From: Psammoneis japonica
Lineage: Eukaryota
Length of the DNA: 64,000 bases
NCBI GenBank assembly: GCA_008632985.1
Contig: QPGO01000041.1
Coordinates: 62,001 to 126,000, forward strand
Reading direction: 5' to 3'
The notes under the pieces were generated by a model, which ran no database searches, was not told the origin of the DNA, and saw only the letters and a list, made by a program, of their open reading frames with translations. The translations under genes were made by a program, and so were the position numbers. Shown one piece after another: positions 1-41,991 of this stretch (position 1 is its first letter; each line of letters opens with the position of its first letter).

Positions 1-135
1 ATATATGGTATTAATGAATCTATTAGATATAACGGAAGCCGTTGTAACGGGCTTCGCTGAAAGCGACCCTCGTTACCTCGGTCTTTCGCTCACAATTTTG
101 TTATCACTAAAGTCTTTATCTCGTTAGACCTTGCA
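1..135 (+). repeat. 5' LTR of Gypsy copy 1 (partial)
   Basis: Near-identical to 5223-5357; ends CCTTGCA. Confidence 0.95.
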
Positions 136-164
136 CTGTAATTACAGTCGATTCAAAGAACTGG

Positions 165-380
165 ATGGAGACTAGGAACAATACAAACAAATTGACTAAA
201 CGTGAGAAAAGAGAACTGCGCGCAAGAGCAGCAGTTTGGGCCATTGAGCACCAGAAACAAGTGCAACAGCGCAAACGACACGAGCAGAATTTGGCGAGCC
301 GAGTGCATCATTTGGAGTCAAAGGTAGAGTCCCTGGAAAGGACTATTGAACAATTGTATTCCCTTTTTCATGATGAGTGA
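165..380 (+). CDS. 71-aa upstream ORF of Gypsy element, basic region + leucine-zipper-like heptads
   Basis: Conserved in copy 2 (10344-10559). L-x6-L-x6-L-x6-L. Stop lies just past the gag ATG at 370. Confidence 0.55.
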   Translation: METRNNTNKLTKREKRELRARAAVWAIEHQKQVQQRKRHEQNLASRVHHLESKVESLERTIEQLYSLFHDE

Positions 381-1590
381 ATCGTTGAAGGAGCCTTGCA
401 TCAGCTGTGAAGCTAAATTTGAGCATTCTGACTTGGAGGACATGAAATTGACCCAATCGCATGATGACGGTAGCACTCGTACAAAAAAGTGTCCGCGTTT
501 TGATGGCACTCATGGTGTTGAAGCATTGTTATTCGTTGAGGATCGTTTTCGTAAAATTGCTGTGAAACTGGAGCACACTGCTGGCGAGGAGTTGTTCGAA
601 AATTTCGAGGAAGTGCTCACGGATGCGGCAGAGGACAAATGGGCGAATTTGACCAATGCAATTGACGATGCCGATAAAACTGTCGAGCGTTTTGATCAGG
701 AAATCAATCGTTTTTACTTGTCTTATTGTGACAATGAAGCGCGTGATACGATGATTGAATGTTTGCCAACTTTGAAAAAACCATTCAAATCTGAAGTGCA
801 GGCGCGCGCGGATCGCATGGAAACCTTGATTCGGTGCTCCAACAAACTTCCGGGAAATGCTCCTCAAGTCAACGAAGCTCAGAAGAAAAAGATGACATTT
901 GACAGCTTCCCTCGTCCGTGGCGTGAGATGTGTGCTCGAGCAGGACGAGCGACAGCGAATGACACTCTCGCTGAGATCATCAGTTGCGTGAACAATGAGA
1001 AATCTTTTGCTGACAAGAGCAGCAACAAGAAGCAGGACAAGAAGAGGAAAGACAGTGGTGCTTCGTCTCAAGCTTCAAGACGCTCTCGTGGCAACAGTGG
1101 CAGAACGGATCCAGAATCTAGATGCCCGGTGCACGCAAATCACGACCACAAGTGGAAGGACCGCACTTTGAATCCAGAAAGCCAAAACTGTCGGCCGAGG
1201 TCCAACCGTGGCGGTCATGGCGGAGGCCGTGGTGGAGGCCGAGGAAACTGCCAAGGCAGAGGACCCCAAGGTCGAGGCGGTCGTGGCAACTTCCAAGGTC
1301 GAGGACGTGGCAATTGTGGCAATCAAGGAGGATGTGGAGGCCGAGGTTATGGCAACCACAACAACTCCCAGAATTCTCAAGGGAATGGATCCCATTGTCA
1401 AAATCAAAACGGCACCCAAGCCAACGGTGATGCCCAAGGCTGTGGAAATCCGGCTGGAGCAGCTCCTCCTGGTGGCTGGCAAATGGAGTCGCACCATTTT
1501 GATCAAGGAGGGCCTCGTGAGATGCGAGGTGGAAATGGATGCGATCAGAACGGTCGTGCCCATCAAGGCCAACGAAGTTGGCGCAATTGA
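370..1590 (+). CDS. gag: Gag-like protein (capsid-like region, CxxH-x3-H knuckle remnant, RGG/GN-rich tail), TpA-mutated
   Basis: First long ORF after the LTR; CPVHANHDHKW motif; RGG repeats; paralogous to 9134-10354. Confidence 0.8.
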   Translation: MMSESLKEPCISCEAKFEHSDLEDMKLTQSHDDGSTRTKKCPRFDGTHGVEALLFVEDRFRKIAVKLEHTAGEELFENFEEVLTDAAEDKWANLTNAIDDADKTVERFDQEINRFYLSYCDNEARDTMIECLPTLKKPFKSEVQARADRMETLIRCSNKLPGNAPQVNEAQKKKMTFDSFPRPWREMCARAGRATANDTLAEIISCVNNEKSFADKSSNKKQDKKRKDSGASSQASRRSRGNSGRTDPESRCPVHANHDHKWKDRTLNPESQNCRPRSNRGGHGGGRGGGRGNCQGRGPQGRGGRGNFQGRGRGNCGNQGGCGGRGYGNHNNSQNSQGNGSHCQNQNGTQANGDAQGCGNPAGAAPPGGWQMESHHFDQGGPREMRGGNGCDQNGRAHQGQRSWRN

Positions 1591-4500
1591 CAAGGGACGG
1601 AAGCGCCCGAGTCAGAGCGTGTCGCTCAATCTTTTTATGTTTGTGTGATTGTGAAGAAAACACATGTTTTAATGTTGATGACAATGTGGGAGACCTGATG
1701 GAATCTTGTGCTGTGAATGAAGAAAAATTGGGCGGCGTTTTGGAGTGCGCTGCACCAACCCCTAAAACTGCGACTCCCAAACCATTGAGTGTGGTGCCAA
1801 TGACGTTGATGGCGGCGCGCACCATTCAAAATCAAGAGAGCAAGCGAGTGTCACGCGTGCCATTGGATTCAGGAGGTGCTGACACTCTTGTTCATTCTCG
1901 AGTTTTGCCGAAGGGAGCGAATCCGACCATGAACGATGAAGGATGGTTGAGCTTTCAGATGGCAGCCGGACGACATGAATCCTCCCGACACGTTGTCATG
2001 AAGGACTTGACATTGCCAGAATTTGACAAGTCAAAACAAGTCGACAGCATTGCGGCTCAAGTTTTTGACACCCCATGCAAGTGTGACTCAATTTTGGGAC
2101 AAGACTTTTTGTCGAAGGCCGGAATCGTGCTTGATTTTCGATTTGGAATGACAAAGTGGTTGGGAACGTCGATCCCAATGAAGCAATCCAATCATTGGAA
2201 CTCAGTTCAGAATTGGTTGGATGCACTGGAAGACGACGGAGAGGACGAAGACGATGAGGAAGCCTTCGGACAATCTTTTATGATGGACGCCAAATGCGAG
2301 AAAGCATCATCCGCGAAAGTGGCGCAAGCTCAAACTCACTTAACTCAAGAACAACGTGATGAGCTGCAGGCAGTGCTTGAAAAGCATGAAACCCTCTTTG
2401 ATGGAACGCTTGGCAAATGTCCGCATGAGACTGTTCACTTGGAAGTTGATCCCAACGCTGTCCCCTTCCATTCTAAGGCTTGTGAGGTGTCCAAGAGGGA
2501 TGAAGCCGTTTTTAAGAAAGAACTGCAGCATTCATGTGACATTGGCACACTGGAACCAGTGGGACCAACTGAATGGGCAGCCGGAACTTTTGCAACTCCC
2601 AAAAAGGATGGACGAGTTCGATGGGCATCGATTTTCGAGAGTTGAACAAGGTGCTCAAGCGAATGGTCCATCCTCTGCCGATCATTCAAGACGTCATTCA
2701 CCGACGCTCGGGATGCAAGTGCTTGACCAAATTGGACCTCACTGTGTTTTATCATCATGTCGAACTTGACGAAGAATCCAAGGATTTGTGTGCCATCGTT
2801 GCTCCGTTTGGAAAATTTGATGCTGTCGATTGGCCATGGGTTTGAAACCCTCTCCCGACATTGCTCAAGCCATCATTGAAAAAGTGGCAAACGGAATCGA
2901 TGTTGAAACTTACATCGATGATGTTGCTCAATTTGATGATTCGTTTGATGCTCACATGCATCGACTCAATGAGCTGTTGTCCAGACTAGAAGAGAACAAC
3001 CTGAAAATTAACCCATTCAAGTGCAAATGGTGTGTCCAAGAGACGGATTTTTTAGGCCATTGGCTCACGCCTGCAGGAGTCCGACCGTGGAAGAAGAAAG
3101 TGGAAGCGGTGCTACGAATGCAACCACCTAAAACTGTGACGCAATTACGATCGTTCATCGGTGCGGCAACTCATTGTCGCAACATGTGGCCTTGTCGCTC
3201 ACACGTGCTCGCTCCACTCACGAAGTTAACAGGCAAGAGCAAGTTGGAATGGACCCCTGAATGTCAACGAGCCTTTGAAGATGTGAAAACCTTGATGCTG
3301 GACGACACCCTTTGGGTCTACCCGGATCACAACAAACCATTCCATGTTCACACTGACTCTTTGGACTGTCAGATGGGAGCCGCAATTGTGCAAGACGGGA
3401 AACCAGTGGCTTGCTGGTCCCGAAAACTCAGCGCAGCACAACAGAACCACTCTACGATTGAAAAGGAATTGTTGGCGGTGGTGGTGTGTTTCAAAGAATT
3501 TCGGAGCATGTCATTCGGAGCTGACTGCACTGTTTTTACAGATCATAAAAATCTCACCTTTCGCACGCTCAATTCTCAATGAGTTCTTAGGTGGCGACTC
3601 TTCTTGGAAGATTTTGCCCCAACTTTCGAATGCGTTGATGGCAAAGACAACCTCTTGGCGGATTGTTTTTCAAGATTGCCGCGTGTGGACCCTCCTGCGG
3701 AAGGGAAGTGTGCTCCCAACAAGGGCAAACTGATTGATTTTAAGGCGATCGACCCTGCCATGCTGCCGCATGAAGAAGAGCTGGACGACCAAAACCGTGT
3801 GTCTCATTTTTCCTGTCGTCGTGAAGAACCATCTCCATTTCACTCTTCTGTCGTGGACGACCCCGAATTGCATGAATCATTTTTGAACTGTCCTTCTCTC
3901 GAGGAAATGCAAAACCCTGCAACTGTGCAACGAATTCAAGAATGCCAATTCATCGACGTGGAGCTGAACAACATGCGACAACAACATCCAGAACGCTTCG
4001 TGGTGAAACATGTGAATCAGCGTCCTGTAATTTGTCATCGTGCTCGACCGAATGATCCTCCGACTGCGTGGAAAATTTGTGTTCCAACGGCGTTGCTGCG
4101 TGATGTCATGCGATGGCATCATGGAATTTTGGGACATGCAGGAGTGCACCGAATGCATTCCACCATTGGCGCACATTTCCATCATCCTGCCCTTCGTCAA
4201 TCCTGTGAAGGATTTCATTGTGCTGATTGTCAACGTTTGAAAACTTTGGGCCCTGGACATGGGGACCTGCCTGAACGAGAAGCGCCTTTGTTGCCATGGA
4301 CGGAAGTTGCGGTTGATCTCATCGGTCCCTGGAAGATTGAAACTCAAAACCATGAAATCGAATTCAACGCTTTGACTTGCATTGATGCCGTTTCGAATGT
4401 GACTGAACTCATTTGCATCGAAAACAAAACCTCGTCTCACATTGCCCAACAATTTGAAAATTGTTGGTTGTCTCGTTGTCCTCGTCCCAACCGTTGCATC

Positions 4501-5082
4501 CATGACAATGGTGGAGAATTCATTGGAGAGGACTTCCAATTGCCATTGCAACAAGCGGGAGTGGAAGACGCTCTGACCACGTCGCGAAATCCACAAGCCA
4601 ATGCGGCATGCGAGCGCATGCATCAAACTGTTGGAAACATCTTGCGCACTTTGCTTCATGTTTGTCCTCCACAGAATGTTGAGCAGGCCAATCAACTGGT
4701 GGACAATGCATTGGCAACCGCCATGCATGCAATGCGATGTGCAGTTTCTCGTGCTCTCAAGATTTCACCCGGTGCCATGGTTTTTCAACGTGATGTGATT
4801 CTTGACTTGCCGGTCCCAGCCGATCTTGCCACCATTCAAGAACACCGACAAGCGATTGTCAATGCGAATCTCCGTCGAGCCAACGCCAAACGCCAATCCT
4901 GCGATTTTCAAGTTGGTGGACACGTTCTACTCAAGTCTGTCGATCCCACCAAGCTCAAACCACGAGCTCACGGTCCACATCCTGTCGTTCAAGTGCACGC
5001 TGACGGTGCGATTACGGTCCAACATGCACCTCATGTGACAGAACGATTGAACATTCGTCGCGTCGCACCGCATCGTACCTGA
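1591..5082 (+). pseudogene. pol: Pol polyprotein (PR-RT-RNaseH-IN), disrupted
   Basis: LDSGG, TPKKDGRVR, TYIDD, FLGHW, EKELLA, VDLIGPW, HDNGGEF, NPQANA-ERMH motifs. Frameshifts near 1640, 2630 and 2820. CGA->TGA stop at 3580-3582 relative to copy 2. Confidence 0.93.
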
Positions 5083-5195
5083 GGTTGAGGGTTTTCTCCC
5101 CAACATTTGGGTTTCCCTTCTATCCTCATCCATTGGAATTTGAAAATTTTTGAGTCCCGCATGATTCTCGACACTCGAATCATGGAAGGGAAGAG

Positions 5196-5357
5196 TGCAG
5201 TGTCTCGCACCCTATTTTTCTGATATATAGTATTAATGAACCTATTAGATATAACGGAAGCCGTTGTAACGGGCTTCGCTGAAAGCGACCCTCATTACCT
5301 CGGTCTTTCGCTCACAATTTTGTTGTCACCAAAGTCTTTGTCTCGTTGGACCTTGCA
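5196..5357 (+). repeat. 3' LTR of Gypsy copy 1 (162 bp)
   Basis: TGCAGTGT...CCTTGCA, preceded by the PPT. Confidence 0.95.
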
Positions 5358-5362
5358 AAACC

Positions 5363-5524
5363 TGCAAGGTCTGACGAGATGAAGACTTCAGTGATGACAA
5401 AATTGTGAGCGAAAGACCGAGGTAACGAGGGTTGCTTTCAGCGAAGCCCGTTGCAACGGCTTCCGTCACATCCAACAGGTTCATTAATGCTGTGTGTCAG
5501 AAAAACAAGGTGCGAGACACTGCA
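5363..5524 (-). repeat. 3' LTR of Gypsy copy 2 (heavily TpA-mutated)
   Basis: Aligns without gaps to 10589-10750; PPT complement CTCTTCCCTTCC follows at 5525. Confidence 0.95.
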
Positions 5525-5636
5525 CTCTTCCCTTCCATGATTCGAGTGTCGAGAATCATGCGGGACTCAAAAAATTTAAATTCCAATGGATGAGGATAGA
5601 AGGGAAACCCAAATGTTGGGGAGAAAACCCTTGACC

Positions 5637-8600
5637 TCAGGTGTGATGCGGTGCGACGCGGCGTACATTCAATCGTTCTGTCACATGAGGTGTGCGTTGG
5701 ACCGCAAGCGCACCGTTGGCATGCACTTGAACGACAGGACATGGACCGTGAGCTCGTGGCTCGAGCTTGGTTGGGTCGACAGCCTTGAGCAGAACTTGTC
5801 CGCCAACTTGAAAATCGCAGGATTGGCGTTTGGCGTTGGCTCGATGGAGATTCGCATTGACAATCGCTTGTCGGTGTTCTTGAATGGTGGCAAGATCGGC
5901 TAGGACCGGCAAGTCAAGAATCATGTCACGTTGAAAAACCACAGCACCGGGTGAAATCTTGAGAGCACAAGAAACCGCACATCGCATTGCATGCATGGCG
6001 GTTGCCAATGCATTGTCCACTGGTTGATTGGCCTGCTCAACATTCTGTGGAGGATAAACATGAAGCAAAGTGCGCAAGACATTTCCAACAGTTTGATGCA
6101 TGCGCTCGCATGCCGCATTGGCTTGTGGATTTCGCGACGCAGTCGGAGCGTCTTCCACTCCTGCTTGTTGCAATGACAATTGAAAGTCCTCTCCAATGAA
6201 TTCTCCACCATTGTCATGGACACACAGGTCAGGACGAGGATGACGAGACAACCAACAATTTTCAAATTGTTGAGCAATGTGAGACGAGGTTTTGTTGTCA
6301 ATGCGAATGAGTTCAGTCACATTCGAAATGGCGTCAATGCAAGTCAAAGCGTTGAATTCGATTTCATGGTTTTGAGTTTCAATTTTCCAGGGACCGATGA
6401 GGTCAACTGCAACTTCCGTCCATGGCAATGAAGGCGCTTCCCGTTCAGGCAGGTCCCCACATCCAGGGCCTAAAGTTTTCAAACGTTGACAATCAGCACA
6501 ATGAAATCTTTCACAGGATTGACGAAGGGCAGGATGATGGAAATGTGTGCCAACAGTGGAATGCATTCGGTGCACTCCTGCATGTCCCAAAATCCCCTGA
6601 TGCCATCGTATGATGTCATGCAGCAACGCCGTTGGAACACAAATTTTCCACGCAGTTGGAGGATCATTCGGTCGAGCACGACAACAAATTACAGGACGCT
6701 GATTTACACATTCCACAACGAAGCGTTCTGGATGTTGTTGTCGCATGTTGCTCAGCTCCACGTCGACGAATTGGCACTCTTGAATTCGTTGCACAGTTGC
6801 AGGGTTTTGCATTTCCTCGAGAGAAGGACAGTTCAAAAATGATTCACACAATTCGGGGTCGTCCACGACAGAAGAGTAAAATGGAGATGGTTCTTCACGA
6901 CGACAGGAAAAATGAGACACGCGGTTTTGGTCGTCCAGTTCTTCTTCATGCGGCAGCATGGCAGGGTCGATCGCCTTAAAAGTCAATCAGCTTGCCCTTG
7001 TTGGGGAGCACACTTCCCTTCCGCAGGAGGGTCCATGCGCGGCAATCTTGAAAAACAATCCGCCAAGAGATTGTCTTTGCCATCAACGCATTCGAAAGTT
7101 GGGGCAAAATCTTCCAAGAAGAGTCGCCACCTAAGAACTCGTTGAGAATTGAGCGTGCGAAAGGTGAGATTTTTATGATCCGTAAAAACAGTGCAGTCAG
7201 CTCCAAATGACATGCTTCGAAATTCTTTGAAACACATTGCCACCGCCAATGATTCTTTTTCAATCGTAGAGCAGTTCTGTTGTGCTGCGCTGAGTTTCTG
7301 GGACCAGCAAGCCACTGGTTTCCCATCTTGCATGATTGCGGCTCCCATCTGACAGTCCGAAGAGTCAGTGCAAATGTGGAATGGCTTGTCATGATTCGGG
7401 TGGACCCAAAGGGTGTCGTCCAGCATCAAGGTTTTCACATCTTCAAAGGCTCGTTGACATTCAGGGGTCCATTCCAACTTGCTCTTGCCTGTCAACTTCG
7501 TGAGTGGAGCAAGCACGTGTGAGCGACGAGGCCACATGTTGCGACAATGAGTCACCGCACCGACAAACGATCGCAGTTGCGTCATGGTTTTAGGTGGTTG
7601 CATTCGCAGCACCGCTTCCACTTTCTTCTTCCACGGTCGGACTCCTGCAGGCGTGAGCCAATGGCCCAAAAAATCCGTCTCTTGGACACACCATTCGCAC
7701 TTGAGTGGGTTAATTTTCAGATTGTTCTCTTCTAGTCTGGATGACAGCTCATCGAGTCGACGCATGTGAGTTTCAAACGAATCATCAAATTGAGCAATGT
7801 CATCGATGTAAGTTTCAACATCGATTCCTTTTGCCACTTTTTCAATGATGGCTTGAGCAATGTCGGGAGAGGTTTTCAAACCCATGGCCAATCGACAACA
7901 TCGAAATTTTCCAAACGGAGTGACAACAGCACACAAATCCTTGGATTCTTCGTCAAGTTCGACATGATGATAAAACACAGTGAGGTCCAACTTGGTCAAG
8001 CACTTGCATCCTGAGCGTCGGTGAATGACGTCTTGAATGATCGGCAGAGGACAGACCTTTCGTTTGAGCACCTTGTTCAACTCTCGAAAATCGGATGCCC
8101 ATCGAACTCGTCCATCCTTTTTGGGAGTTACAAAAGTTCCGGCTGCCCATTCAGTTGGTCCCACTGGTTCCAGTGCGCCAACATTACACAGATGTTGCAG
8201 TTCTTTCTTAAAAACGGCTTCATCCCTCTTGGATGCTTCGCAAGCCTTAGAATGGAAGGGAACAGCATTGGGGTCAACTTCCAAGTGAACAGTCTCATGC
8301 GGATGTTTGCCAAGCATTCCATCAAAGAGGGTTTCATGCTTTTCAAGCACAGCCTGCAGCTCATCACGTTGTTCTTGAGTTAAGTGAGTTTGAGCTTGCG
8401 CCACTTTCGCGGATGATGCTTTCTCGTATTTGGCGTCCATCATAAAAGATTGTCCGAAGGCTTCCTCATCGTCTTTGTCCTCTCCGTCGTCTTCCAGTGC
8501 ATCCAACCAATTCTGAACTGAGTTCCAATGATTGGATTGCTTCATTGGGATCGACGTTTCCAACCACTTTGTTGTTCCAAATCGAAAATCAAGCACGATT

Positions 8601-9133
8601 CCGGCTTTCGGCAAAAAGTCTTGTCCCAAAATTAAATCACACTTGCATGGGGCATCAAAAACTTGAGCCGCAATGCTGTCGACTTGTTTTGACTTGTCAA
8701 ATTCTGGCAATGTCAAGTCCTTCACAACAACGCATCGGGAGGATTCATGTCGTCCGGCTGCCGTCTGAAAGCTCAACCATCCTTCATTGTTCATGGTTGG
8801 ATTCGCTCCCTTCGGCAAAACTCGAGAATGAACAAGAGTGTCAGTGCCTCCTGAATCCAACAACACTCGCAACACTCGCTCACTCTCTTGATTTTGAATG
8901 GTGCGCGCCGCCATCAACGTCATTGGCACCACATTCAATGGTTCAGGAGTCGCAGTTTTAGGGGTTGGTGCAGCGCACTCCAAAACGCCGCCCAATTTTT
9001 CTTCATTCACAGCATGAGATTCCATCAGGTCTCCCACATTGTCATCAACATTAAAACACATGTTTTCTTCACGATCACGCGAAACATAAAAAGATTGAGC
9101 GACACGCTCTGACTCGGGCACTTCCGTCCCTTG
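5637..9133 (-). pseudogene. pol: Pol polyprotein of copy 2 (PR-RT-RNaseH-IN), one frameshift near 7000
   Basis: 712-aa and 449-aa ORFs with LLDSGG, DFRELN, YIDD, FTDHKNL, ADCFSRL, integrase core and a GPY-derived GPC. Confidence 0.93.
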
Positions 9134-10354
9134 TCAATTGCGCCAACTTCGTTGGCCTTGATGGGCACGACCGTTCTGATCGCACCCATTTCCACCTCGC
9201 ATCTCACGAGGCCCTCCTTGATCAAAATGGCGCGACTCCATTTGCCAGCCACCAGGAGGAGCTGCTCCAGCCGGATTTCCATGGCCTTGGGCATCACCGT
9301 TGGCTTGGGTGCCATTTTGATTTTGGCAATGGGATCCATTCCCTTGAGAATTCTGGGAGTCATTACAACTGCCGTAACCTCGGCCTCCACATCCTCCTTG
9401 ATTGCCACAAATGCCACGTCCTCGACCTTGGAAGTTGCCACGACCGCCTCGACCTTGGGGTCCTCTGCCTTGGCAGTTTCCTCGGCCTCCACCACGACCT
9501 CCGCTGCTGCCGCCACGGTCGGACCTCGGTCGATGGTTTTGGCTTTCTGGATTCAAAATGCAATCCTCCCACTTGTGGTCATGATTCGCATGCACCGGGC
9601 ATCCAGATTCTGGATCCGTTCCACCACTGTTGCCACGAGAGCGTCTTGAAGCTTGAGACGAAGCACCATTGCTTTTCCTCTTCTTGTCCTGCTTCTTGTT
9701 GCTGCTCTTGTCAGCAAAAGATTTCTCGTTGTTCACATGACTGATGATCTCAGCGAGAGTGTCGTTCGCTGTCGCTCGTCCTGCTCGAGTGTGCATCTCA
9801 TGCCACGGACGAGGAAAGCCATCGAATGTCATCTTTTTCTTCTGAGCTTCGTTGACTTGAGGAGCATTTCCTGGAAGTTTGTTGGAGTGCCGAATCAAGG
9901 TTTCCATGCGATCTGCATGCGCCTGTGCTTCAGATTTGAATGGTTTTTTCAAAGTCAGCAAACATTCAATCATCATATCACGCGCTTCATTGTCACAATA
10001 AGACAAGTAAAAACGATTGATTTCCTGATCAAAACGCTCGACAGTTTTATCGGCATCGTCAATTGCATTGGTCAAGTTCGCCCACTTGTCCTCTGCAGCA
10101 TCCGCAAGCACTTCCTCGAAATTTTCGAACAACTCCTCGCCAGCAGTGTACTCCAATTTCACAGCAATTTTACGAAAATGATCCTCAACAAATAACAATG
10201 CTTCAATGCCATGAGTGCCATCAAAACGCGGACACTTTTTTGTACGAGCACTGCCGTCATCATGCGATTGGGTCAGTTTCACTTCCTCCAAGTCAGAATG
10301 CTCAAATTTAGCTTCACAGCTAATGCAAGGCTCCTTCAACGATTCACTCATCAT
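9134..10354 (-). CDS. gag: Gag-like protein of copy 2
   Basis: Near-identical to 370-1590. Confidence 0.8.
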   Translation of the reverse strand: MMSESLKEPCISCEAKFEHSDLEEVKLTQSHDDGSARTKKCPRFDGTHGIEALLFVEDHFRKIAVKLEYTAGEELFENFEEVLADAAEDKWANLTNAIDDADKTVERFDQEINRFYLSYCDNEARDMMIECLLTLKKPFKSEAQAHADRMETLIRHSNKLPGNAPQVNEAQKKKMTFDGFPRPWHEMHTRAGRATANDTLAEIISHVNNEKSFADKSSNKKQDKKRKSNGASSQASRRSRGNSGGTDPESGCPVHANHDHKWEDCILNPESQNHRPRSDRGGSSGGRGGGRGNCQGRGPQGRGGRGNFQGRGRGICGNQGGCGGRGYGSCNDSQNSQGNGSHCQNQNGTQANGDAQGHGNPAGAAPPGGWQMESRHFDQGGPREMRGGNGCDQNGRAHQGQRSWRN

Positions 10355-10559
10355 GAAAAAGGGAATACAATTGTTCAATAGTCCTCTCCAGGGACTCTAC
10401 CTTTGACTCCAAATGATGCACTCGGCTCACCAAATTCTGTTCGTGTCGTTTACGTTGTTGCACTTGTTTCTGGTGCTCAACAGCCCAAACTGCTGCTCTT
10501 GCGCGTAGTTCTCTTTTCTCACGTTTAGTCAATTTGTTTGTATTGTTCCTAGTCTCCAT
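10344..10559 (-). CDS. 71-aa upstream ORF of copy 2
   Basis: Two amino-acid differences from 165-380. Confidence 0.55.
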   Translation of the reverse strand: METRNNTNKLTKREKRELRARAAVWAVEHQKQVQQRKRHEQNLVSRVHHLESKVESLERTIEQLYSLFHDE

Positions 10560-10588
10560 CCAGTTCTTTGAATCGACTGTAATTACAG

Positions 10589-10750
10589 TGCAAGGTCTAA
10601 CGAGATAAAGACTTCAGTGATAACAAAATTGTGAGCGAAAGACCGAGGTAACGAGGGTCGCTTTCAGCGAAGCCCGTTACAACGGCTTCCGTTATATCTA
10701 ATAGGTTCATTTATACTATATATCAGAAAAATAAGGTGCGAGACACTGCA
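10589..10750 (-). repeat. 5' LTR of Gypsy copy 2 (least mutated LTR)
   Basis: Retains TA-rich tract TTATATCTAATAGG...ATACTATATATC. Confidence 0.95.
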
Positions 10751-10887
10751 AAACCGCTCACACATTTTGCATCGCCGATCGCCGATCATGCCCAGAACAA
10801 AGTCAAGTCAAAGCAATGGCGAACCAATAGGCAGTATTCCCCTCCATTACATAGCAACGCTTAGGCTTTCAATCCCACAAAGTAACA

Positions 10888-11888
10888 ATGTTCATGCAAG
10901 GAAGTTTAACAACGAACAGGTTGCGAAAAGTTGGCTTTCATTTTCTACACAGTAATCGCTTTGCTTTGTCGACAATAATACGGCGTTCCAAAAGCATTCA
11001 AGCCGGTGGATTTGCTTGGCCACTTGCTTCCAAGGCACACAAGGGTGGCGAGGACGCATTTTTCATTCAAATAGATCGAGAGAATTATGAAATTGATCCA
11101 TCGACGACTGGAGCACAGAGACGTCTTGTTTGCGGTGTAGCGGATGGAGTTGGTGGGTCAAAACAACCCGACGTCTATGCTAATGCGCTCATGGAGTCTT
11201 GCAAGGCATTTGCTCGTGACAATCCGAGTGTACTGAATCCAAAAGAAATCCTGCAAGGAGTCTGGGAAGCTAACTCGGCATTACGGGATGGAACGATTGA
11301 TGGCAGTAGCACTGCTTGTTTGGTGTCGTTGGTTTTGCAAGAGAACTACAATCTCGAACTTCACTGTGCCAATGTGGGAGATAGTGGCTTTGTCATGATT
11401 CGTAAGAATCAAGGACTGTATCGATCCAAGCCTCAGTTACACGGACCCAACACGCCCTTTCAATTGGGACCGAATTCCGATACCCCAGCCGCTGCCGACG
11501 AAACCTCTGTTTTGTTGGAACCAGGTGACGTGATTGCCGTTTGCACCGATGGTATATTTGACAATTTGTTTTTGAATCACGTATCGCTCATTCTCCACGG
11601 GCTCAAAAAGGTACAAGAAGCCATTACGTGGCTTGAACAACAGCAAAATCAGCAAGACCCCACACCCTTGCAACAGGCAGCCAGTTTCCAAATTCCCGTA
11701 CCGGTACCGGGAAGTCGACAAGAGGGGACCCAGAATGTGTACAAGTGGCGCAAACATTATGTGCTCATGCCAAAGCAATATATCAATCCGAAAAATATTG
11801 CATGACGCCTTTTGATGCGGAGCAATTTCATTACTCTCCTGGTGGCGGGAAAATGGACGATGCCACGGCCGTGGTGATTCAAGTCTAG
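10888..11888 (+). CDS. Protein phosphatase 2C, PTC7-like
   Basis: GEDAFF, VADGVGG, GSSTAC, NVGDSGF, TPFQLG, TDGIFDNLF. The C-terminal TPF...GGKMDDATAVV* lies in another frame ending 11888 (indel or small intron near 11650-11730). Confidence 0.85.
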
Positions 11889-12199
11889 CTACGTATACCT
11901 GTTTGCGCCAGATTTTATCATGCAGTGCACGGTGGTGCAAAATCAGAAATGATTTGCAGCAGCAATGCTTGACGCGTTGTGTCGTTCAATGGAGCAAAAC
12001 AAAACAGATGATGTGTCACGGTAGTTTTTGAGGTCGAACTTCCTCCCGATCCACAATGCGCTCAGTTTGTCTTGCACATGTCAGCTTCTTCTTGTAAACA
12101 CTTGAGTACTTCTTGCTGTTGCACTGCTGGAGCACTGTTGGGTGTAGCCGCTGGTGACGGCAGCATCCTAAGTTTTGCTGCAGTGTTGCTCTCTGGATA

Positions 12200-18229: not shown

Positions 18230-21200
18230 GGCAGCGAGGTGTCCGTTGGGACATATGGACAATCTGGGAGACCCAGACTCCCCTCTTCAGTAGAACAAGA
18301 GGTTCTCTTTGTGCACTCTACCAGCAACACCAGCAGCTACCTGCGACAGTTTGTTTTCTTGATTGACAAGTTTAACCGAGTCAGGAGCAAAATTTCTTTG
18401 AGCTCTTGCCACCAGAGGCAGCCATGTGGAACACGCCATTGATTGACAATTGTTTTTGGTGGTTGGTTCAAATGGCATTGCAGCAGCCATTTCAGCTGTG
18501 TGTTGAACTTTTTTTTTTGTTCTCATCTTGGAGGGTGCACCACTCCAACTTTCATTGCAGACCATTTCCCATTGAAGCTCATGTGTGAGAGGCCATCTGA
18601 TTCCAGTGCTGCAGGTTCCAGATGTGACTTTTCCCTGGCTGGGCCCAGGCTCTGGGGTGTCAGACCCTCAAATTTGGGGGCACATGCCCCAGCAGTTGCA
18701 GCTCTGCTGCCAAGAAGACAATTTGGCACAACACACAACATGAAAATTGAAACATTTGCCTTGAGTCCAGAGATGCCTTGCAAACAGCAGGGGTGCTTGT
18801 GAGCAAATCTCAGTCAAACAACTCAGCTTTGCTGTGGCATGCAGATGACTTTAAGTCTTCCCCCCCTGCTGTTGCTGCTGCTGAAAAACACAACTTTGCT
18901 CCACCATGGCAAATGAACTGCAATGGCAGTGATGCTTGCACCACCTTGTGTGAAACACGTGCAGTTGCTGCACCTTGTGTGCTTTCAAGTGACAAAAAAT
19001 GGCAGGTTGTCAAAAGTTGCATTGTGGAAAATGTGGTGCTGGCTTGTCTCTGGGAAAATGAAATCATGTGAACAGAGAATCACACAAATTTTCTGTTGGC
19101 TTGCACTTTGGATCACATGCAATTGATTGCACTGCAGTTTCTTTCACCCCATTTGCTTGTCACCACATGCATGGGTGCAAGTGGCACACTTTTGTTGTGG
19201 ATTGTCACACTGTTTGTGCTGATGGCCTGTCAACTCATGTGCCACATGCACAGATGCTCACTTCTAAAATGCCTCTGAGTTGCCAAGCAACAGCCTCCCC
19301 CACCTGTGCCTGTGCAGCATGTGCTGAAACTGTGCAGTGTGCACACACCTGGGATTTGTGCAGCTTTGCTTTGTTGCTGGCAGCACAGAACATGCTGCAT
19401 TGCAACAACGCAACAAAAACAAAAGAAAGAGCAGGCTCCTTCCTGGCAACACAAGCAGCCAATTCACAGCTGATTTTGGGAAAAGTTTTGCAACAAGTTG
19501 GCAGCAAACATCATGCCTTGAGCCTGACCCACACTGCATTTGACAATCTGTGCTTGCTGTGTTGTGGTCTGGTTGGGCCAAGTGTTGGCAGCTGCTGTGC
19601 ACCAGCCATGAGCCTTGGCAGTTGACCCCAGCACATGCTGCATCATGGTTGTCATGGTTGACAACATCAAGGTTGGTGAAAGCACATTCTTGCATGTGAG
19701 CGCACAAAACCAAACAGAAAAAACAATTTTCTCAATGGACAAAACAGAGAGCAATTTTTCTCACAATGAACCCCAGCTTTGGCAACTTGTGTCATAAAAA
19801 AAGGCTGATTAAAGGCTGGTTCCAACTCCAGATGTCATGCATGGGCCCATTTTGTGTTTGACAAAGCAAGCTCCTTCAATTTTGTAACTTTCCCAAATTG
19901 AAGGGCAAGCAGTGCACACAAAGCCTTGCTTTGTTCATGTGCTCTTGCCTTTGACCTTGGAAAAACCCAAAATTGAAGGAGCTCATTGTGCCAAATGTGA
20001 CATGGCATCAGTTGACAATGTTGGTTGATGTGATCTGCACATTTTGACTTCAGAGACCAACCTCAGCCCCCATGTGTGGTGTTTTTGCCCATGCTCTTGC
20101 ACTGATGTTGCCCTTTCTCAGACGGCATTTTGCTGGGTCTCACAAGACCATTCTGACCATTTCAGCATGATGTCAAGCAATGTTTCTAAGCAGTGGAAAA
20201 TTGCTGGCATTGACTCCTTGTGGTTTGCATGCTGATTGATCTTTTTTGCAATTTCCTGCAACTCAACAAATTTTCTGCATGGATTCCAGGACAAATTCTG
20301 TGTGCTTCAATGCTTTGTCAAATCTCTGAGCCACTCACACCCATGCCCATCTGCCCTCAACATCTCATTCTTTGTTCCCATTGGCCAATCAAGTCCTTCA
20401 CTCTGTTGGGTGAACGCACTGCCTCTGTTGTGGCACTGATGAGCATGAGAATGAGCCCCCCTTTGGCACCAATTGACAATCCTCCATTTGCTGCATGCAC
20501 CAGCATTTCCATGCAAGATCTGGCACATGGTTTCTGCTTGTGAAACATGTTTTTTCCAATGACCGACTTGTCACATCATCAAGCACTCCCATTTTTTGTC
20601 TCCCAGTCCTGGACAACCCTTTCCTCACTTGCCAGCAAATCAAGCTCCCTGTTCTTTGCAGTGATCTTTCCACCATTGTTCCATTGCTTGGAGGTGTGAA
20701 AGTGCCCCCCTTTTTGATGACAGAGCCAGCAGCTTGGCAATCATGTTTTGATCTCATTTCTTTTGCTGTTCTTAAACCAAGCTCTGGAAGCAATTGTTCT
20801 TGGCCATTGTGACATGGCAGCCACATGTTTCCAGCCCATGCAAAAGCAGCAAACTCTGCAATGTGTTCTCAGATGTTCCCCAGTTGCCTCAGTTGGTCTT
20901 TGCTGCAAGGTGGCACCAACCTTGGCCAGTCTGTGTCCCTTTCTGCTGTGCTCATTTTGTGTGCTGGAAGTGTGGGTGGCTGGTGCCAGCATGTCTGGCA
21001 AAGGAGCAATGGCACTTGCAAATTAGATCTGGTTTGATGGTTGATGTGATCTGCAGTGCAAGAACAGACATTGCACAATGTGAGATGGCTCCTGAGCAGA
21101 GTGCCAGGTGCAATTGATCGTTGCTGTTTTTGTGTGTCATGTGTCACAACAAACAGAAGCCATGGGGCATTTGCTGGCAGCAGAGTGAAGGCCAAGGCAA

Positions 21201-23400
21201 AAGTGAGACTGTGTGTGGCCAATGAAAAAAATGGCAGATTGAACAGCCCCATTTGTTCTTCCTTTTAACACGCCTCATGGTGTGCAGAGTGCAGTGGATT
21301 GTTTTGTCATTCTTGTGAGCCAGCAGTCACACAAATGCAAGCCACAAAAGGGCTCTGGAGCAAAGGCTGGCACACAAAAGTGGAGCTGTGCATGAGCAAT
21401 GTCAGCTTGACTGACTCAGTGAAAAGTTTGTCCTCCCCTCTGATGTGCTGTGGGTGGTGTTGCAGTGCTTCTCCAAGTGCCATTTTTTAAACCCCATTTT
21501 TCATTCTGCCTGTCATCCCAACTCATCAACAGCGCCAATGGGGTTGACTCACTCTGTTGAAATTTGGGGCTTTCAGTCAACTGGTGGAGGGTTTGACAAG
21601 CAACCATCAGGTTTGGTTCCTTAAACTGGCTCATGTTAAAAAGCTGCAGACGGAGAAGTTTTTTCCAATTCAACAAATCCACCCTGCACACCCATCACAT
21701 GATCCAGAGGCATTGCAGTGACAAGCTGTGGACCACCAACATTGTTGTGGCAGCCATGCTTGTGGCTCCAGAGGGGGATCAACAGAGTGCCAAGACATGG
21801 TCACTTTTCAGCCCTGATTCTTCATGACTCATTGAGTCAACTTGACCATTCTTGGAGTCAACTCAATCTTTTGTCATTCACAAGTTGCAAATGAAATGTG
21901 ACTTTGCTGCACTCCACCATTGCTCTTGCTGCTGCACTCTGAAAGGGGTCCAATCGACCACAACGGGTGGCCCAAGTCAGCTGAGCATGTTTCAATGACT
22001 CTTCCTTTGTGTGCCCAAGGACTCATCAAGGACAATTGGTTCCTTGGATGCAATGTGTTGCCTGTGAAAGTCACTTTGCCCATTGCCCCTGCTTTCCTGG
22101 TGCTCCAAAAAAAAAAAAACAAGGAAAACCTGCTCAAGGGTTTCCCTTGACTGTCCATTTCACAAAACCCAAAACAGTTTTTGACTCTTTCCAAAAAACA
22201 TGGAGCTTTTGAGCTTTAAAATCCAGCCCTGTTTCATCATTTGAATGTTGCATTGGTGACAGAAGTGCCACAAGCTTTGCAGTTTGTTGTTGCTTGTGAG
22301 GCAAAAGATTGCCATCAGATGGCATTTTTTCACCACTGGGGCCTTTGTTGGTGTTGTCTGAAGCCTCCAAACTGATTTTGATCAAATTTGATTGTCCCAA
22401 TGCAAGCTTGAGCTCCTCAGCCACAGAGTTGAGGTTTTCTAGATCACCATGGCAAAACTCTTCCCTGAGGGGAGATCCATTTGCTCAAATGCATCTGCTT
22501 GCCTGGCACTTCAGCTTTCTGCCCATTTCTTTCAACCAGCTTGTTGCATGGTCTGTGTGTTTGTCTTTAATCTGTGCTGCCAGCTTGGCTTGGACAAGGT
22601 TGGTTGCTTTTTGTTTGTCCACATGATGTGTGCACACTCATTTGAAGCCTGTTTTTCCAGGAAAGAAATGTTGGGCAGGGCTGATTTTTCACTGTTGACA
22701 TCTCAGCTTGGAATGTCTTTTTCATTTCATGACATTGGGCAACAACTTGGCACTTTTTTCATGTGCTGCCGGCACCTCCTCCTTGTTTGCATCAACAACC
22801 ACCCATGCAAGGACATCCCAAGCTCTGTTTGGGTCTGAGTGTCTTTGAACCAGAGCTCATTCATGAGTGCTGTTTTGTGCCACCACTGTTTTGAGTGTGT
22901 GTTTTGCAGTCTTTTTGTTGCCGTCGGCTTTGGCGCCAAGCGGAAGAGACAAAAATCTGGCACAGCACTTTTCAGCACACCAGCAACAGAAGCACCAGAA
23001 TCATGCCATTTGCTTGTGCATGTCACAGCTCAGCCGCCAACCCAAGAGCAAGGTGACACTCACAGGGCTGTCTCCATCAATTGAATTGTCTTCGTCAACA
23101 CATTGTGAGACATGGTCACACTTCAAAGGTGCGCGGTGCTGCCCAGCACAAAATTCCAATTGACAGCAGTGTCGCCATCACAGTTGCACACCAGTTTGAT
23201 GAAATTTCTTTGCAACATGCCATGGCAAAAAGCAGATGCTGACTGGTGCAAATTCAACATCAGCAGATTTTTTTTTGTGCCACTTGAGTGCTGGCACCCA
23301 CAGCTGCTGAGTCCCTCAGCTCTCAGCAGCCATCAAATCAACAATGTCTTCAATTTTTTTGTTGGTTGTCTCATTTTTCCACTTTTTTGTGGTGACGGTG
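18230..23400 (-). mobile_element. Highly decayed repeat relic, almost devoid of TpA and CpG; possibly Ty1/copia (CoDi-like)
   Basis: No coherent ORF. Faint GA(N/K)GG and INQ(Y/H)A-like traces on the minus strand near 20100-20500. Composition sharply differs from flanking genes. Confidence 0.35.
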
Positions 23401-23921
23401 GTTCAGTTCGCGCCTTGGCTGCTTGCAGCACTGCCCGTTTTCTTCATCGTCTGCCCCCATGATGGACGGTGGTTTGCCTTGCTCATCTCGTGACTCACTC
23501 GTGCGCGTTTCCTTCCCGCAAGCGAGCACAGGTGACGAACATTGTGTGTCTGTTTATTTTTTTTACACACACACACAAAAAAGAGGAGAGTCATTTCGAT
23601 TGTGCCGCACCATAGTACATTTTTTCTTTTTTGTCATTATGACAGAGTCATCGTGGCATAAAAACGAAGTCGGCGAGGATTTATGCCAAGATGGTCATCA
23701 ATTCAAAGAGACATTTTATTTATGCATACATTTTTGTATGTAGTGGGCTTAAATATTTTTCGACATTTTGATTAGTTATGACCTTTCGAATTGGCTCACA
23801 TTTTGTTTACGACTACTCCTCTCGAGTAATTTTCCAGTGCCCGAGCGTTCCGCAGTTTCGTGCAGACTGCAGGCCTCATTTTCTACGAAGGACGAAGCTT
23901 ACGAAAGGCCAGTCGTAAACA

Positions 23922-25709
23922 ATGAGGGTTCTTCCTATGGTTGTTGCCTTGCTATCCATGTTGCCGTCCGCATTCGGAAAAGGATTCAAGGCCAAGGATT
24001 GCTACGGAGACTACGGAGAGAAGTGTGACCTTGACGAAACAGATCTCGGAGACTTTCTAAATGAAGATGCAATCGACGTGGAATTGTTAGGCTTGAAGAA
24101 GCACTTTCGGCAAGTTAGAACAGAAAGACGCGATCAAGGAAAACCGAGCCGTAACGGAAGAAGAAAACGAAGTTGGCACGGCATTGACGGAGACGCCTCT
24201 ATTACTCTTGTCGAAGAAATCGGTCCCGATAATCAGAGGCAGGTTTTTGGCACAGTTCAGGATGAAAAGTTTGTTCATCACATCGGGCAAGATGGTCAAG
24301 GTAAGCCACGAGTAGTCTCAAAGCCTTTCTCAGCATTCCCAAGGGAGGCAGAAGCAAGGCCTATTGGCACTGTAAAGACGCCGAAACGTGTCAGGACCCG
24401 TGCTGTGCCTGGAGGTCGAAAACTGAGTGGCGAGAAAACCGAAATTGATGTCATGGTCGTCTGGACAACATGGGCTGAATGCAAGAATTCCGAAATGGAG
24501 CAGGGCTGTACACCGACAGCCCAAACCGAGACAAGCATGAGGGGCCTTATCGACGTTGCAGTTGACGAAACCAACGAAGCCTACGTACTGTCAGGAATAG
24601 ATGCCCGGTTGCGCCTCGTTCATTCGTATCGCCAAGAAAATTTCGTAGAGGAAGGTTTTGGGCATGCACTTGATACCATCTCCTTTGCAGAAGGTGCCAT
24701 GAGCGACGTTCACCAACAAAGGGAGAGTTGCGGAGCAGATGTTGTCGTGTTCCTGATCCATGACGAACTTTATTGTGGAATGGGATGGCTAGGCCCGGAC
24801 AAGGATTAGTAAGTTTGAAACAAAAGATTGTGCTTGTGTGTCCTCAAAATTTTGTGAGAGTTTCCGCTCAACGAACTTCATTGTCGGAATCGTGACTTTC
24901 TTGAATGTCTTGAAGCATGTACTCGGCCGTAGCATGGAATTGCGCAACAGGTTACTACAGTTTCGGACACGAGATAGCCCACAACATGTAAGTTGCAGAT
25001 GATGTGATTTGTATATCGATCGCTGTCCAGAGAGAGCAGGAACTCACGAATGCGCTGCTGACTTTTTGGGGCTCAGGGGTGCCAACCACGACCGTGGAAC
25101 GTCAGACATGTGTAATGAAAGCGGTGGTAACTTTGGCTTTCGGGATAAACAGTCTAGATTCCGCACCATCATGTCATATGATTGTAACACCGACCAGTGC
25201 GATAGTCTTGGTGGTACCAGAGGCTGCCAAAGGATCAAACGTTTCTCCACTACTGTGGTAGGTCAAGAGAAACTCGGTCTCACTTTTCTGAATCTGCGTC
25301 ACTTTACTAATGCTACTCTCTTTCGCTTTCTTCTAATAATGCTCTTTTATAGTACACTTACAATGGCGAGAGTATCGGAGACGCAAAGAACGATAACGCC
25401 TCACACATTAACAGCGTCGTAGAGGAAATAGCCGCATACTATCCAACAAGAGTCTTCGACCAGGAAAACATACCCGAGCCTACAGGTCCAACTGTTGTAA
25501 ATATGCCTTCCTCAGTCAATTGCCAGGATAGCACCGAGTGGAAATGTTTTAGAAGGCGAAGAAATGATTTTAAAGGATGTGATTGGGTTTCAAGAGCCAA
25601 GAATGACAAAGCGAGAAAGAGGCGATGCAAAAAGAAATCAAGTGCGAAACAACCTGCCAGTGAAGCATGTATTGCAAGCTGCCATGATGAATGTGTCTCG
25701 AAGTCTTAG
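23922..25709 (+). CDS. Secreted zinc metalloprotease, M12B/reprolysin-like (peptidyl-Asp metallopeptidase type)
   Basis: Signal peptide; spliced HEIAHNM-GANHD (HEXXHXXGXXH); RTIMSY Met-turn; Cys-rich C-terminus; three introns. Confidence 0.88.
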
Positions 25710-26019
25710 ACAAGTTAATTAGAATTTTTTAGCAATGAAGTCATGTCAGTTTCTTGTTCCTGGTGCTGCAATGAATTCTACAAGCTCTCTTTCTTTTTGC
25801 ACTGTGAATTTTAAAAACCAAGTTTCTTGTGATGTGTGCCAAGAGCTGCCGGTGCTGTGAATGATGGAAGCCATGTGATTCCCCCACAAACTGAATGTCC
25901 AACACCACTTGAAGAGACAAGTGGATGCATCATGTGATGCCAAGGATGATCACAAACAAGGTTGCTTCTTGTTGACTCTTTGCAACTTTTGCCAAGCTTT
26001 TGTGCATGTGACGCATGTG

Positions 26020-27020
26020 TCAATTGGGTCATTTTGTGAGTTGCTCCAATCAAACAACGCCGTTGTTGGAATCATGGCTTCCTTGAACATCTTGAGCATG
26101 CACTCTGCTGCAGCATGGAATTGTGCAACCAGTTGCAGACACAAGACAGCCCCAACATGCAAGTTGCAGATGGCGCAACTTGCAGCTCAACCACCATCCA
26201 GAGAGAGCAGGAGCTCACAATTGTGCTGCCACTGGCTTCTGTTGTTAGAGCTCAGGGGTGCAACCCCCCCCACACACACACACACATGGCTGCTGGAATG
26301 TCAGACATGTGTGGTGAGAGCAGCGGCAACTTTGGCTTTTGGGATGAACAGTCTAGATTCTGCACTGTCATGTCACATTGTTGCAAAGCTGATCAGTTTG
26401 AGTGGCACCAAAGGCTGCCAACAGATCGAACACTTTTCCAATGCTGTGGCAGGTTGAGAAAAGCTCCATTTTGCTTTTCTGAATCTGCGACCTTTTGCCA
26501 GCACAGCTCTCTTTTGTTTTCTTCCTTGTTCCAGCACACTCACAAGCAAGAGTGTCGGAGACTCAAAAAAGAATGATGCCCCACATGTTGACAGCATTGC
26601 AGAAGAAATGGTCACATGCCATCCAAAACAAGGCATTGAGCCAGGAAAATGCACCCAAGCCAACAGCTCTGGCTGTTGCAAATGTGCCTTCCTCAGTCAA
26701 GTGCAAGGACAGCATCAAGCGGAAATGTTTTAGAAGGCAAAAAAATGATTTGAAGGATGTGATTGGGTTTCAAGAGCCAAGAACAACAAAGCAAGAAAGA
26801 GGCAATGCAACAAAATGTCAAGTGCAAAACACCCTGCCAGTGAAGCATGCATTGCAAGCTGCTGTGATCAATGGCCAACTGGAAAAGCCCGCCAGCAATG
26901 AGGCAATGACAATTTCTTGTTCCTGATGCTGCAACAAATTCCACAAAAGCTTTTTCTTTTTGCGCTGTGAATTTCACAAACCAAGTTTCTTGTGATGTGT
27001 GCCAAGGGCTGCCAGTGAGC
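26020..27020 (+). pseudogene. Decayed tandem duplicate of the 3' half (with introns and 3' flank) of the upstream metalloprotease gene
   Basis: Colinear with about 24850-25860, e.g. catgtactcggccgtagcatgg vs catgcactctgctgcagcatgg. Confidence 0.9.
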
Positions 27021-40899: not shown

Positions 40900-41860
40900 T
40901 CGGCCTTGTTTGAGCTATTCTTGATCGTTTTCGTTCATTGAAGACATGGACATTACTTTTAGGAGGTCTGATTGTTAGGTAAGCCCCTTGGTTTGGCGAA
41001 AAATGGAGTTGTCGTTGTGTTGAAATCAAAAAATGGGTGTTTTCCAATTTTGAGCGGCAAAACCCATGCTTTGATCTTTTTTCGTTAAAGACACCTCCTC
41101 TGTTGCCTGCCATTGCTGGTGTCTCTCTATTGTAGATACGAAAGGCACTCACTGTCTTGGGCATGCTGTGCATTTGATCTGTGGTGAGAAACAAGGCACT
41201 GTCACATTGACTGGATTGACCGGATGAGACGGGTTCCAGCCCCAGGTGGGACTTTTTGTGACATTGGGCCCGCAGAATTCTACGTGCGAGCTCCGTAGTA
41301 AAATTGTTAAGCAATGGACATGTGAATGATCGCCAACAGAAAAAGAGGCAATTTTGCGAACGCATCTCCTCCTCCACACTTGAAGCACATTCTTTGCAGC
41401 ATGCCCGGGTGTGTTCTTTAGACATCAAACAATGTGCCCAGCACACTTTTGTTGACGTGAGTGCAGACAACAGAAAGCCTTTGGCTTCGCAAAACAGGCA
41501 GTGTGGAACAATTTTTTACAATAGAACACGCAGAAATGCACGCGCGAAACATGCGACAGATGACAAAAAACAATCATGTCACAGTTCAGCAGTGCGAGGT
41601 CCCACCCAGAGCTGGAACACGTCATGATCAGGAATGGTCACGACCCATGCTTTGATGTCATTTCGTTCAATGCACCTCCTCTGTTGCCTCCCATTGCTGT
41701 CATCTCTTTGTCACAGACACGAAAAGTGTCTCCTGTCTTGGGTGTGCTGTGTGTGTGATCTGTGGCGAGTGACATCGGCCGCACATGTGTGGTCTCGCAC
41801 CGGTGTTTTGAGACTGCCGCTGACCCACACTTTGATGTTTGTTCGTTCATTTCGTCTCTT
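40900..41860. repeat. Degenerate tandem repeat (unit roughly 170-180 bp) interrupted by a MITE
   Basis: ccatgctttgat...cacctcctctgttgcct..ccattgct...ctgtcttggg at about 41065 and 41646; related partial units near 40920 and 41830. Confidence 0.6.
41228..41623 (-). mobile_element. MITE family A, divergent subfamily (396 bp), TSD ATGA
   Basis: GACGGGTTCCAG...CTGGAACACGTC termini; ATGA at 41224-41227 and 41624-41627. Confidence 0.85.
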
Positions 41861-41991
41861 TGCTCACACTTTTTTTGTCGAGAACAGCACGTGCAACACA
41901 CTTCCAGCAGTTACGAAATCTGTTCGTGTTCAAACCAATCAGCATCATTTGAGGATGAGATTCTTGTGGGGCCCTTTTCATTCCCCCCCCT

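Follow-up and report, generated by a model that had tools for sequence, protein, structure and literature searches.

Two adjoining Ty3/gypsy retrotransposons in the diatom Psammoneis japonica have lost about 85% of the TpA steps that related elements carry over pol, the direction of change being TA to TG or CA, as is fixed by the pol protein. Most of the hits came after insertion and separately in each copy, they show strict TpA specificity with equal use of both strands, and the process is not confined to retroelements, for MITE-like elements and the duplicate of a gene fragment show it as well. It is highly probable that a host mutator working on the double-stranded chromosomal DNA of silenced repeat domains turns the A:T pairs of TpA steps into G:C. 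All coordinates refer to the window, which is the whole stretch of 64,000 nucleotides of contig QPGO01000041.1 that was analysed.

The two elements lie at the start of the window and carry TG...CA LTRs, a polypurine tract and the domain order protease, reverse transcriptase, RNase H and integrase, and R has a 5-bp target duplication, all as in Ty3/gypsy elements. Copy R (5363-10750, minus strand) was delimited by its LTRs, target duplication, polypurine tract and pol domains. The AAACC target-site duplication stands at 5358-5362, where it is the sole spacer between R and its neighbour L, and again at 10751-10755. Since R is on the minus strand and its polypurine tract, which fixes the orientation, is at 5525-5536 (minus), the eroded LTR at 5363-5524 (minus) is the 3' LTR and that at 10589-10750 (minus) the 5' LTR. 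Between them, also on the minus strand, are a gag-like ORF of 420 aa (9137-10396, Tyr 0.95%) and pol in two frames (5640-9133) in the Ty3/gypsy order, with domain matches to protease, RT and RNase H at 6986-9133 and to integrase at 5640-6986. Copy L, on the plus strand, consists of a 5' LTR (1-135, clipped by the window start, with 14 TA kept and one lost), an internal gag-pol region (136-5195) that is about 94% identical to that of R and includes a polypurine tract (5184-5195, plus), and a 3' LTR (5196-5357) with 12 TA kept and four lost; its left flank lies beyond the window. The gag-like ORF of L, the twin of that in R, had no Pfam match. The two copies differ at 336 of 5,342 compared positions, 248 of which are transitions at pyrimidine-purine steps. 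LTR position 27 is C in both LTRs of R and T in both LTRs of L, and the sequence points to two separate insertions, not a fold-back duplication, the second of which appears to have gone into a target site bordering the first copy. Most of the named pol relatives come from diatoms, and the best homolog of the neighbouring serine acetyltransferase is 67% identical, the names among the 120 listed being all diatom. Lying tail to tail with the 5-bp AAACC between them, L and R form an inverted repeat of 5.3 kb. The 5' LTR is followed in both (136-147 and 10577-10588) by a 12-bp palindrome, CTGTAATTACAG, which is not a tRNA-type primer site starting with TGG; Rfam found nothing in positions 1-12000. 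A 1-bp frameshift in the pol of R near 6982-7004 is missing from most of the depth of the sequencing contigs considered below.

The two LTRs of one element are identical at insertion, so that, gene conversion aside, differences between them arose later. Compared without gaps over 162 bp, the LTRs of R (5363-5524 and 10589-10750) show 15 mismatches, comprising 8 TA/TG, 5 TA/CA, 1 CG/TG and 1 A/T transversion, which reproduces the count of an earlier sequence-only reading that had listed the last simply as one other; both of the example sequences it quoted are present in the DNA. The derived state of the transversion is in the 5' LTR (10712), the three other LTRs and the contigs having A. Thirteen of the 15 TA steps of the 5' LTR are thus TG (8) or CA (5) in the 3' LTR, which retains two TA steps, in GTAA and TTAA contexts, and the earlier statement that one LTR was hit far more than the other holds good. 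TA steps make up 30 of the 162 positions but hold 13 of the 15 mismatches (binomial p=2e-8), and changed A/T bases amount to 13/30 at TA steps and 0/65 elsewhere (Fisher p=3.4e-8), with no change among 63 adenines outside TA (AA 0/29, CA 0/13, GA 0/21). The LTR at 1-135, which had been cited as support for TA as the ancestral state, covers 12 of the 13 TA-type sites and does have TA at 11 of them, with CA at one, and the LTR at 5196-5357 has TA at ten and CA at the three where 5363-5524 has TG. Alignment of all four LTRs, as the earlier reading had proposed, gave 17 positions bearing TA, and at those three, with TG in the 3' LTR of R, CA in the 3' LTR of L and TA in the two 5' LTRs, TA is the sole intermediate. 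The pattern on which that reading had rested its case is therefore real, but the direct proof of direction that it saw in the LTR pair was supplied instead by the protein and sibling-copy comparisons.

For the protein comparison a set of 120 pol homologs was used, and conserved columns were scored in L and R. Cysteine and histidine are the products of TAY to TGY and TAY to CAY changes. Conserved tyrosine was kept at only 3/21 columns in L and 3/23 in R (6/44), and had become Cys or His at 17 and 19 respectively (36 of the 44), whilst conserved arginine was kept at 30/33 and 31/32 (61/65) and other conserved residues at 399/459 and 404/460 (803/919; p=2.6e-26 against tyrosine). The direction claimed earlier, TA to TG or CA, is borne out by these columns, the 120 homologs having tyrosine where L and R have Cys or His, and the family state is accordingly not TG/CA: TA density over pol is 7.5/kb here against 49.4/kb in related elements, the latter baseline being drawn from 32 GC-matched loci among the best 78 of 459 confirmed stretches. 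The observed/expected ratio (o/e) of TA over pol is 0.11 and 0.12 in the two copies and between 0.41 and 1.07 in all 78 of those best related loci. A comparison of L with R yields 72 sites with CA in one copy and TG in the other, and the 48 of these that are testable in pol divide into 34 from TA, two from CG and 12 ambiguous. Both copies are changed at 22 conserved Tyr codons, at 14 of them in the same way and at eight in opposite ways (p=0.29 against 50:50), which fits independent hits, since inheritance from one eroded parent predicts no opposite changes. That sibling copies changed the same sites oppositely also upholds the earlier claim that the changes post-date integration.

Other DNA has been affected in the same manner. 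The 3' part of a host peptidase-like gene (24849-25859, plus strand), with 48 TA and an in-frame HExxH motif, is the parent of an eroded tandem duplicate (26031-27024, plus) in which three TA remain; 34 aligned TA are now CA (23) or TG (11), and 32 CG have been lost as well. The duplicate shows a bias towards CA (23:11 among TA changes, 19:13 among CG changes) that is not seen in the retroelements. A MITE-like element of 400 bp is present in three copies, the least eroded of which (57968-58373, strand unassigned) has short terminal inverted repeats and 23 TA. Copy two (60990-61396, minus) has 11 TA and departs from the 58-kb copy at 20 places, 12 of them TA to TG or CA; copy three (41992-42387, plus), with nine TA, departs from it at 21, of which 14 are of this type. 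TA-rich though the domain around it is free of TA, the 58-kb copy seems to be a recent insertion that has still to erode, and it might serve as a clock for the process. Its two ends, TG|CAG...CTG|CA, could be an eroded TA target duplication.

On a larger scale the window is divided into eroded domains, with 126 TA in 28,947 bp, and gene-rich domains, with 1,258 TA in 30,005 bp, the switch from one to the other occurring within one or two 500-bp bins. The process is restricted to repeat domains and host genes are spared, although one affected block is the duplicate of a host-gene fragment. Tyrosine makes up 2.4-3.5% of three host ORFs and 0.7-1.0% of gag. Almost no TA or CG is left in an older domain at 18373-23555 (TA o/e mostly <0.1, CG o/e mostly <0.2), which had no Pfam match in the scanned ORFs and no partner within the window and represents the end state of both decay processes; further TA-free domains, recognised by TA content, lie at about 25800-28400, 41500-43400, 45600-49100 and 55300-64000. 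The 76 ORFs scanned from eroded domains, out of 100 listed, gave no Pfam match above the cut-off; there was one weak capsid-type match below it (E=0.008), which does not count as evidence, and the window yielded no identified viral insert. DNA transposons seem to be hit too, as a remnant of a DDE_Tnp_4 transposase (46337-46867; E=3e-5, just under the cut-off) lies in a TA-free block. An eroded domain also contains a tandem duplication of 74 bp with 89% identity (59300-59442). Exposure to the process is patchy along the copies. Both 5' LTRs, together with roughly the first 800 bp of L and R, are partly spared, and the 3' LTR of L has lost 4/16 TA, all four at most 35 bp from its junction with R, against 14/16, including one inherited site, in the adjoining 3' LTR of R (p=0.001).

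The two LTR pairs have only two differences outside TA and CG steps, and thus both insertions are young. The 3' LTR of R has taken about 1.0 hits per TA adenine against a background of about 0.004 per site, a rough 250-fold excess in which the background consists of two differences. CpG decay is a second, slower process in the same DNA, with 67 changes in 567 CG copies of L and R, or 12% per copy compared with about 85% for TA, and CpG accounts for 14 of the 15 polarised G>A changes. The naive K2P distance of the R LTR pair is 0.102, falling to 0.015 when TA sites are masked and to 0.0075 when CG sites are masked as well, so that LTR dating is inflated 7-14-fold but is rescued, on very few sites, by masking. 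The earlier reading was right about the inflation; that dating is thereby invalidated does not follow. LTR ages in this genome will be about tenfold too high unless TA and CG sites are masked.

No TA to CG double change was found in five polarised comparisons, and as either product, TG or CA, destroys the target, each TA step is hit once. The strands are used equally (CA against TG: 46/42 in L, 42/51 in R), and a runs test for long same-strand runs found none (p=0.55 and 0.76). Survival of TA depends on the surrounding 4-mer, from 0 for ATAT and 0.02-0.04 for GTAC to 0.49-0.85 for TTAA, the values depending on the baseline, whilst the ranking is unchanged under a retroelement baseline; with gene-rich DNA as baseline, survival fits the product of two flank terms (deviance 5.25, 6 df). 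The choice of strand is weakly affected by the flanks, with ratios of 46:31 in paired copies (p=0.11) and 15:23 at Tyr codons. The flank effect thus acts mainly on the whole duplex step and the edited strand follows it weakly. A single-strand TAY target was considered and rejected, as it predicts about 20:1 at TTAY/RTAA where paired copies gave 21:13 and Tyr codons 9:7.

These features can be brought together in a mechanism in which the mutator would act on double-stranded chromosomal DNA in silenced repeat domains, a hit on one strand giving TG and a hit on the other CA. It would be directed by silent chromatin, that is by CG-methylated transposon domains, and not by repeat pairing. The reasons are that the eroded blocks also show CpG decay, that DNMT5 methylates diatom transposons, and that promoter ends have escaped, as has one partner of a duplication, the argument from parent and duplicate against pairing being a single case. 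Transposons of Phaeodactylum are subject to DNMT5-dependent methylation and silencing (PMC9998398; PMC12344493), and CpG decay beside TA loss fits this. Adenine would be deaminated to inosine by a TadA/ADAT-type enzyme and read as G at replication, and the whole may play a role in defence. Natural ADAT2/3 has been described as able to deaminate A in DNA, but the natural DNA-editing ADAT2 described there favours GAA and hairpin loops, not TA (PMC10354150), which counts against the deaminase step. The full chain, from mutator through silent-chromatin targeting to adenine deamination by such an enzyme, has about an even chance of being correct.

As TpA is palindromic, chemistry aimed at A and chemistry aimed at T leave the same sequence, and a thymine target has to be weighed. 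A TET/JBP-type dioxygenase would mark TpA with 5-hydroxymethyluracil (5hmU) or a further oxidised base that is later mispaired or mis-repaired to C, so that the loss of TpA would record an epigenetic mark in the way that CpG loss records 5mC. Oxidised T may mispair, the sequence outcome would be the same, and a symmetric, site-level flank effect with CpG decay alongside would suit a writer that reads the duplex. Dinoflagellate 5hmU silences transposons and is reported to favour T in TA and TC (PMC11572971), but TC steps here are unhit (GA changed at 0/21 in the LTR and at 1/46 and 0/44 in the MITE-like copies), near-saturation at less than 1% background divergence would require a very mutagenic mark, and diatoms are absent from the main text of that paper. 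Thymine oxidation is considered unlikely, though it comes next after adenine deamination in preference.

Another possibility, and a rather improbable one, is that TpA steps in repeats carry N6-methyladenine or some other adenine mark, which is afterwards deaminated or misread as G. Methyltransferases typically act on both strands of a palindromic dinucleotide, and the site-level flank effect fits. Eukaryotic symmetric 6mA, however, is found at ApT and tied to active genes, and ApT o/e shows no specific depletion here. Slightly less probable still is an error-prone polymerase of the Pol eta type that resynthesises methylated repeat patches in the course of repairing T:G mismatches. CpG decay in the same domains is what this would predict, as is some short-range clustering on one strand, which is weakly present (within 10 bp 19/28 neighbours agree in strand, p=0.044, and at 20 bp the signal is gone, p=0.50). 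The motif of Pol eta is WA to WG, with both TA and AA mutated, yet AA adenines are never hit (0/29 and 0/25 in the LTR pairs, 0/73 and 0/73 in the MITE-like comparisons), and a TA loss of about 85% so far exceeds the CpG loss of 12% that repair of CpG lesions cannot be the main trigger.

Editing before integration, by an ADAR- or APOBEC-like activity on RNA or cDNA, or conversion of the 3' LTR from an older eroded copy is also improbable. The CA at LTR position 27, which is derived from TA and common to both LTRs of R (the 5' LTR, with its 15 TA, included), was probably inherited from the parent copy, so some hits have passed through transposition and lightly hit copies can still transpose. 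Contig depth is mostly 2,000-4,000 over the element and about 60 in the flank; this is not a copy number, but it suggests that the family has tens of copies, which could act as donors for conversion. RNA editing predicts one direction of change and identical LTRs, but the directions are equal and the LTRs differ, and non-retro DNA has been hit too; a recombinant element would not be expected to have an intact target-site duplication, and gene conversion would merely carry over the same mutations from another chromosomal copy.

That the changes are a long-read base-calling artefact at modified bases, fixed in the assembly, is very improbable. Contigs from run X1, apparently of the short-read type, contained 57% of sampled exact 31-mers, though single-copy sequence makes up only about a quarter of the query, and 368 of 1,611 aligned contigs were at least 99% alike. 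At the conserved Tyr codon at 8304-8305 they have CA, not TA, at a depth of 566/597, and between contigs and window there are 253 differing places, made up of 215 transitions in near balance and 38 transversions. A loss of tyrosine also recurs in proteins from other collections. The contig runs come from one sample and one study, possibly the source of the window itself, the contigs drop rare variants, and run X2 covers the flank only, while nothing from run X3 aligned. At five listed places (11726, 11840, 11849, 11917 and 12029) both covering runs are unlike the window, with two 1-bp insertions and three substitutions. These lie in single-copy flank, in or just past a PP2C-like ORF, and are likely to be assembly errors or another haplotype. 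An origin in ordinary RIP or CpG decay, with CA and TG ancestral or derived from CG, can be set aside almost entirely, for although CpG decay is real (14/15 polarised G>A changes) and 2/48 discordant sites fit CG, the 120 homologs have tyrosine, arginine is kept at 61/65 columns, 34/48 discordant sites come from TA, the parent gene fragment keeps its HExxH and TA o/e stands at 0.11-0.12.

Repeat-targeted hypermutation in eukaryotes, as known so far, is mostly a matter of cytosine chemistry (RIP, APOBEC, CpG decay). RIP mutates both partners of a linked duplication and depends on RID/DIM-2; here the parent at 24849-25859 is untouched, in one case only. As described for Neurospora crassa, RIP resembles the present process in producing dinucleotide-specific transitions in repeats, with loss of coding capacity and most genes spared, but it is premeiotic, changes C to T, mainly CpA to TpA, so that TpA rises, and its mutations bunch on one strand (PMC7296669), whereas here A:T becomes G:C, TpA falls and there are no long same-strand runs. 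The CpG decay of DNMT5-methylated diatom transposons likewise shares TG and CA products, repeat domains and a palindromic target (PMC9998398; PMC12344493), but it begins at CG instead of TA and has reached about 12% per copy against about 85%. Dinoflagellate 5hmU, made by TET/JBP enzymes, is again a transposon-associated base change with a TA preference in a SAR lineage, although as described it is a silencing mark without T to C hypermutation that is also found at TC (PMC11572971), a step unhit here.

The closest parallel is the TpA-only hypermutation of integrated NCLDV and virophage DNA in Bigelowiella natans (Mettrop et al., bioRxiv 10.64898/2026.01.13.699255). According to the main text of that preprint the rate was measured directly by mutation accumulation at about 6e-7 per site per generation, some 1000-fold over baseline, and activity was intermittent between cell lines, with which the patchiness between LTRs here would be compatible; ADAT2 was proposed as the enzyme, unproven, and RT and DDE domains were enriched in TpA-depleted genes, transposons being named as possible targets. 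In both organisms A changes to G after T and T to C before A, on both strands, in a patchy fashion, in blocks of foreign DNA and, on a rough estimate here, far above background, and by signature and targeting the process in P. japonica belongs to the same kind, extending it to another supergroup branch and to far deeper erosion. P. japonica is a stramenopile, not a chlorarachniophyte rhizarian, and the targets seen in it are LTR retrotransposons, MITE-like elements and the duplicate of a host-gene fragment, where those in B. natans are NCLDV and virophage inserts. TA o/e is 0.11, near saturation, against 0.45 in the NCLDV block of B. natans; the flank effect and the joint CpG decay seen here do not appear in the main text of the preprint, from which the words "diatom" and "LTR" are also absent; and the evidence here is comparative where that in B. 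natans is a directly measured rate. A literature search, with most subscription journals outside its scope, returned this preprint as the sole match and no diatom report.

It may tentatively be proposed that diatoms and chlorarachniophytes share an old genome defence, a dsDNA editor or writer of A:T pairs at silent chromatin that would recognise TpA in the duplex and erase coding capacity. Such recognition would explain the symmetric flank effect. If the proposal is true, there exists an A:T counterpart of RIP that works without repeat pairing and hits stray host-gene copies too, and its enzyme is a natural dsDNA adenine (or thymine) editor. A natural duplex-DNA adenine editor would matter both to genome defence and to base-editing tools. 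The near-saturating diatom case suggests that the TpA process is wider and offers another organism in which the enzyme might be sought, with retrotransposons and stray gene copies as direct targets. Loss of TAA and TAG stops should moreover lengthen spurious ORFs in dead repeats.

The conversion of tyrosine to Cys or His provides a cheap protein-level screen for the TpA process elsewhere. Among the best 78 of 459 related metagenome loci, a sample that favours intact or collapsed copies, TA o/e over pol was below 0.4 in 0/78 and none had more than two Tyr to Cys/His changes. Repeat pairs within these 78 loci, many of them old or assembly overlaps, showed no pooled TA excess (88/731 differences). 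Two pairs of terminal repeats among them, L018:4131-4337/9092-9291 and L067:1-228/5646-5880, have 3/4 and 5/7 differences of the TA/CA type, in both directions and with no net TA loss, numbers too small to carry a conclusion. All 16 fragments from Nitzschia inconspicua, Cylindrotheca closterium, Ditylum and Cyclotella had at most two Tyr to Cys/His changes, and the process would thus not seem evident in every diatom, the samples favouring intact copies. At least four such changes were found in five of the 132 homologous proteins examined, namely P0214 (12/13), P0051 (13/19), P0250 (7/10), P0230 (4/10) and P0173 (7/23), which come from Logan, JGI and ENA and may or may not belong to other species. 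The first four are candidates for the same process in other organisms; P0250 has lost 9/10 conserved arginines too. The pol of P0173 differs from that of P0171 by 19 Thr to Ala, 13 Val to Ala, eight Tyr to Cys, five Tyr to His and five Tyr to Arg changes, and may reflect another process, a broader A:T to G:C hypermutation with double hits.
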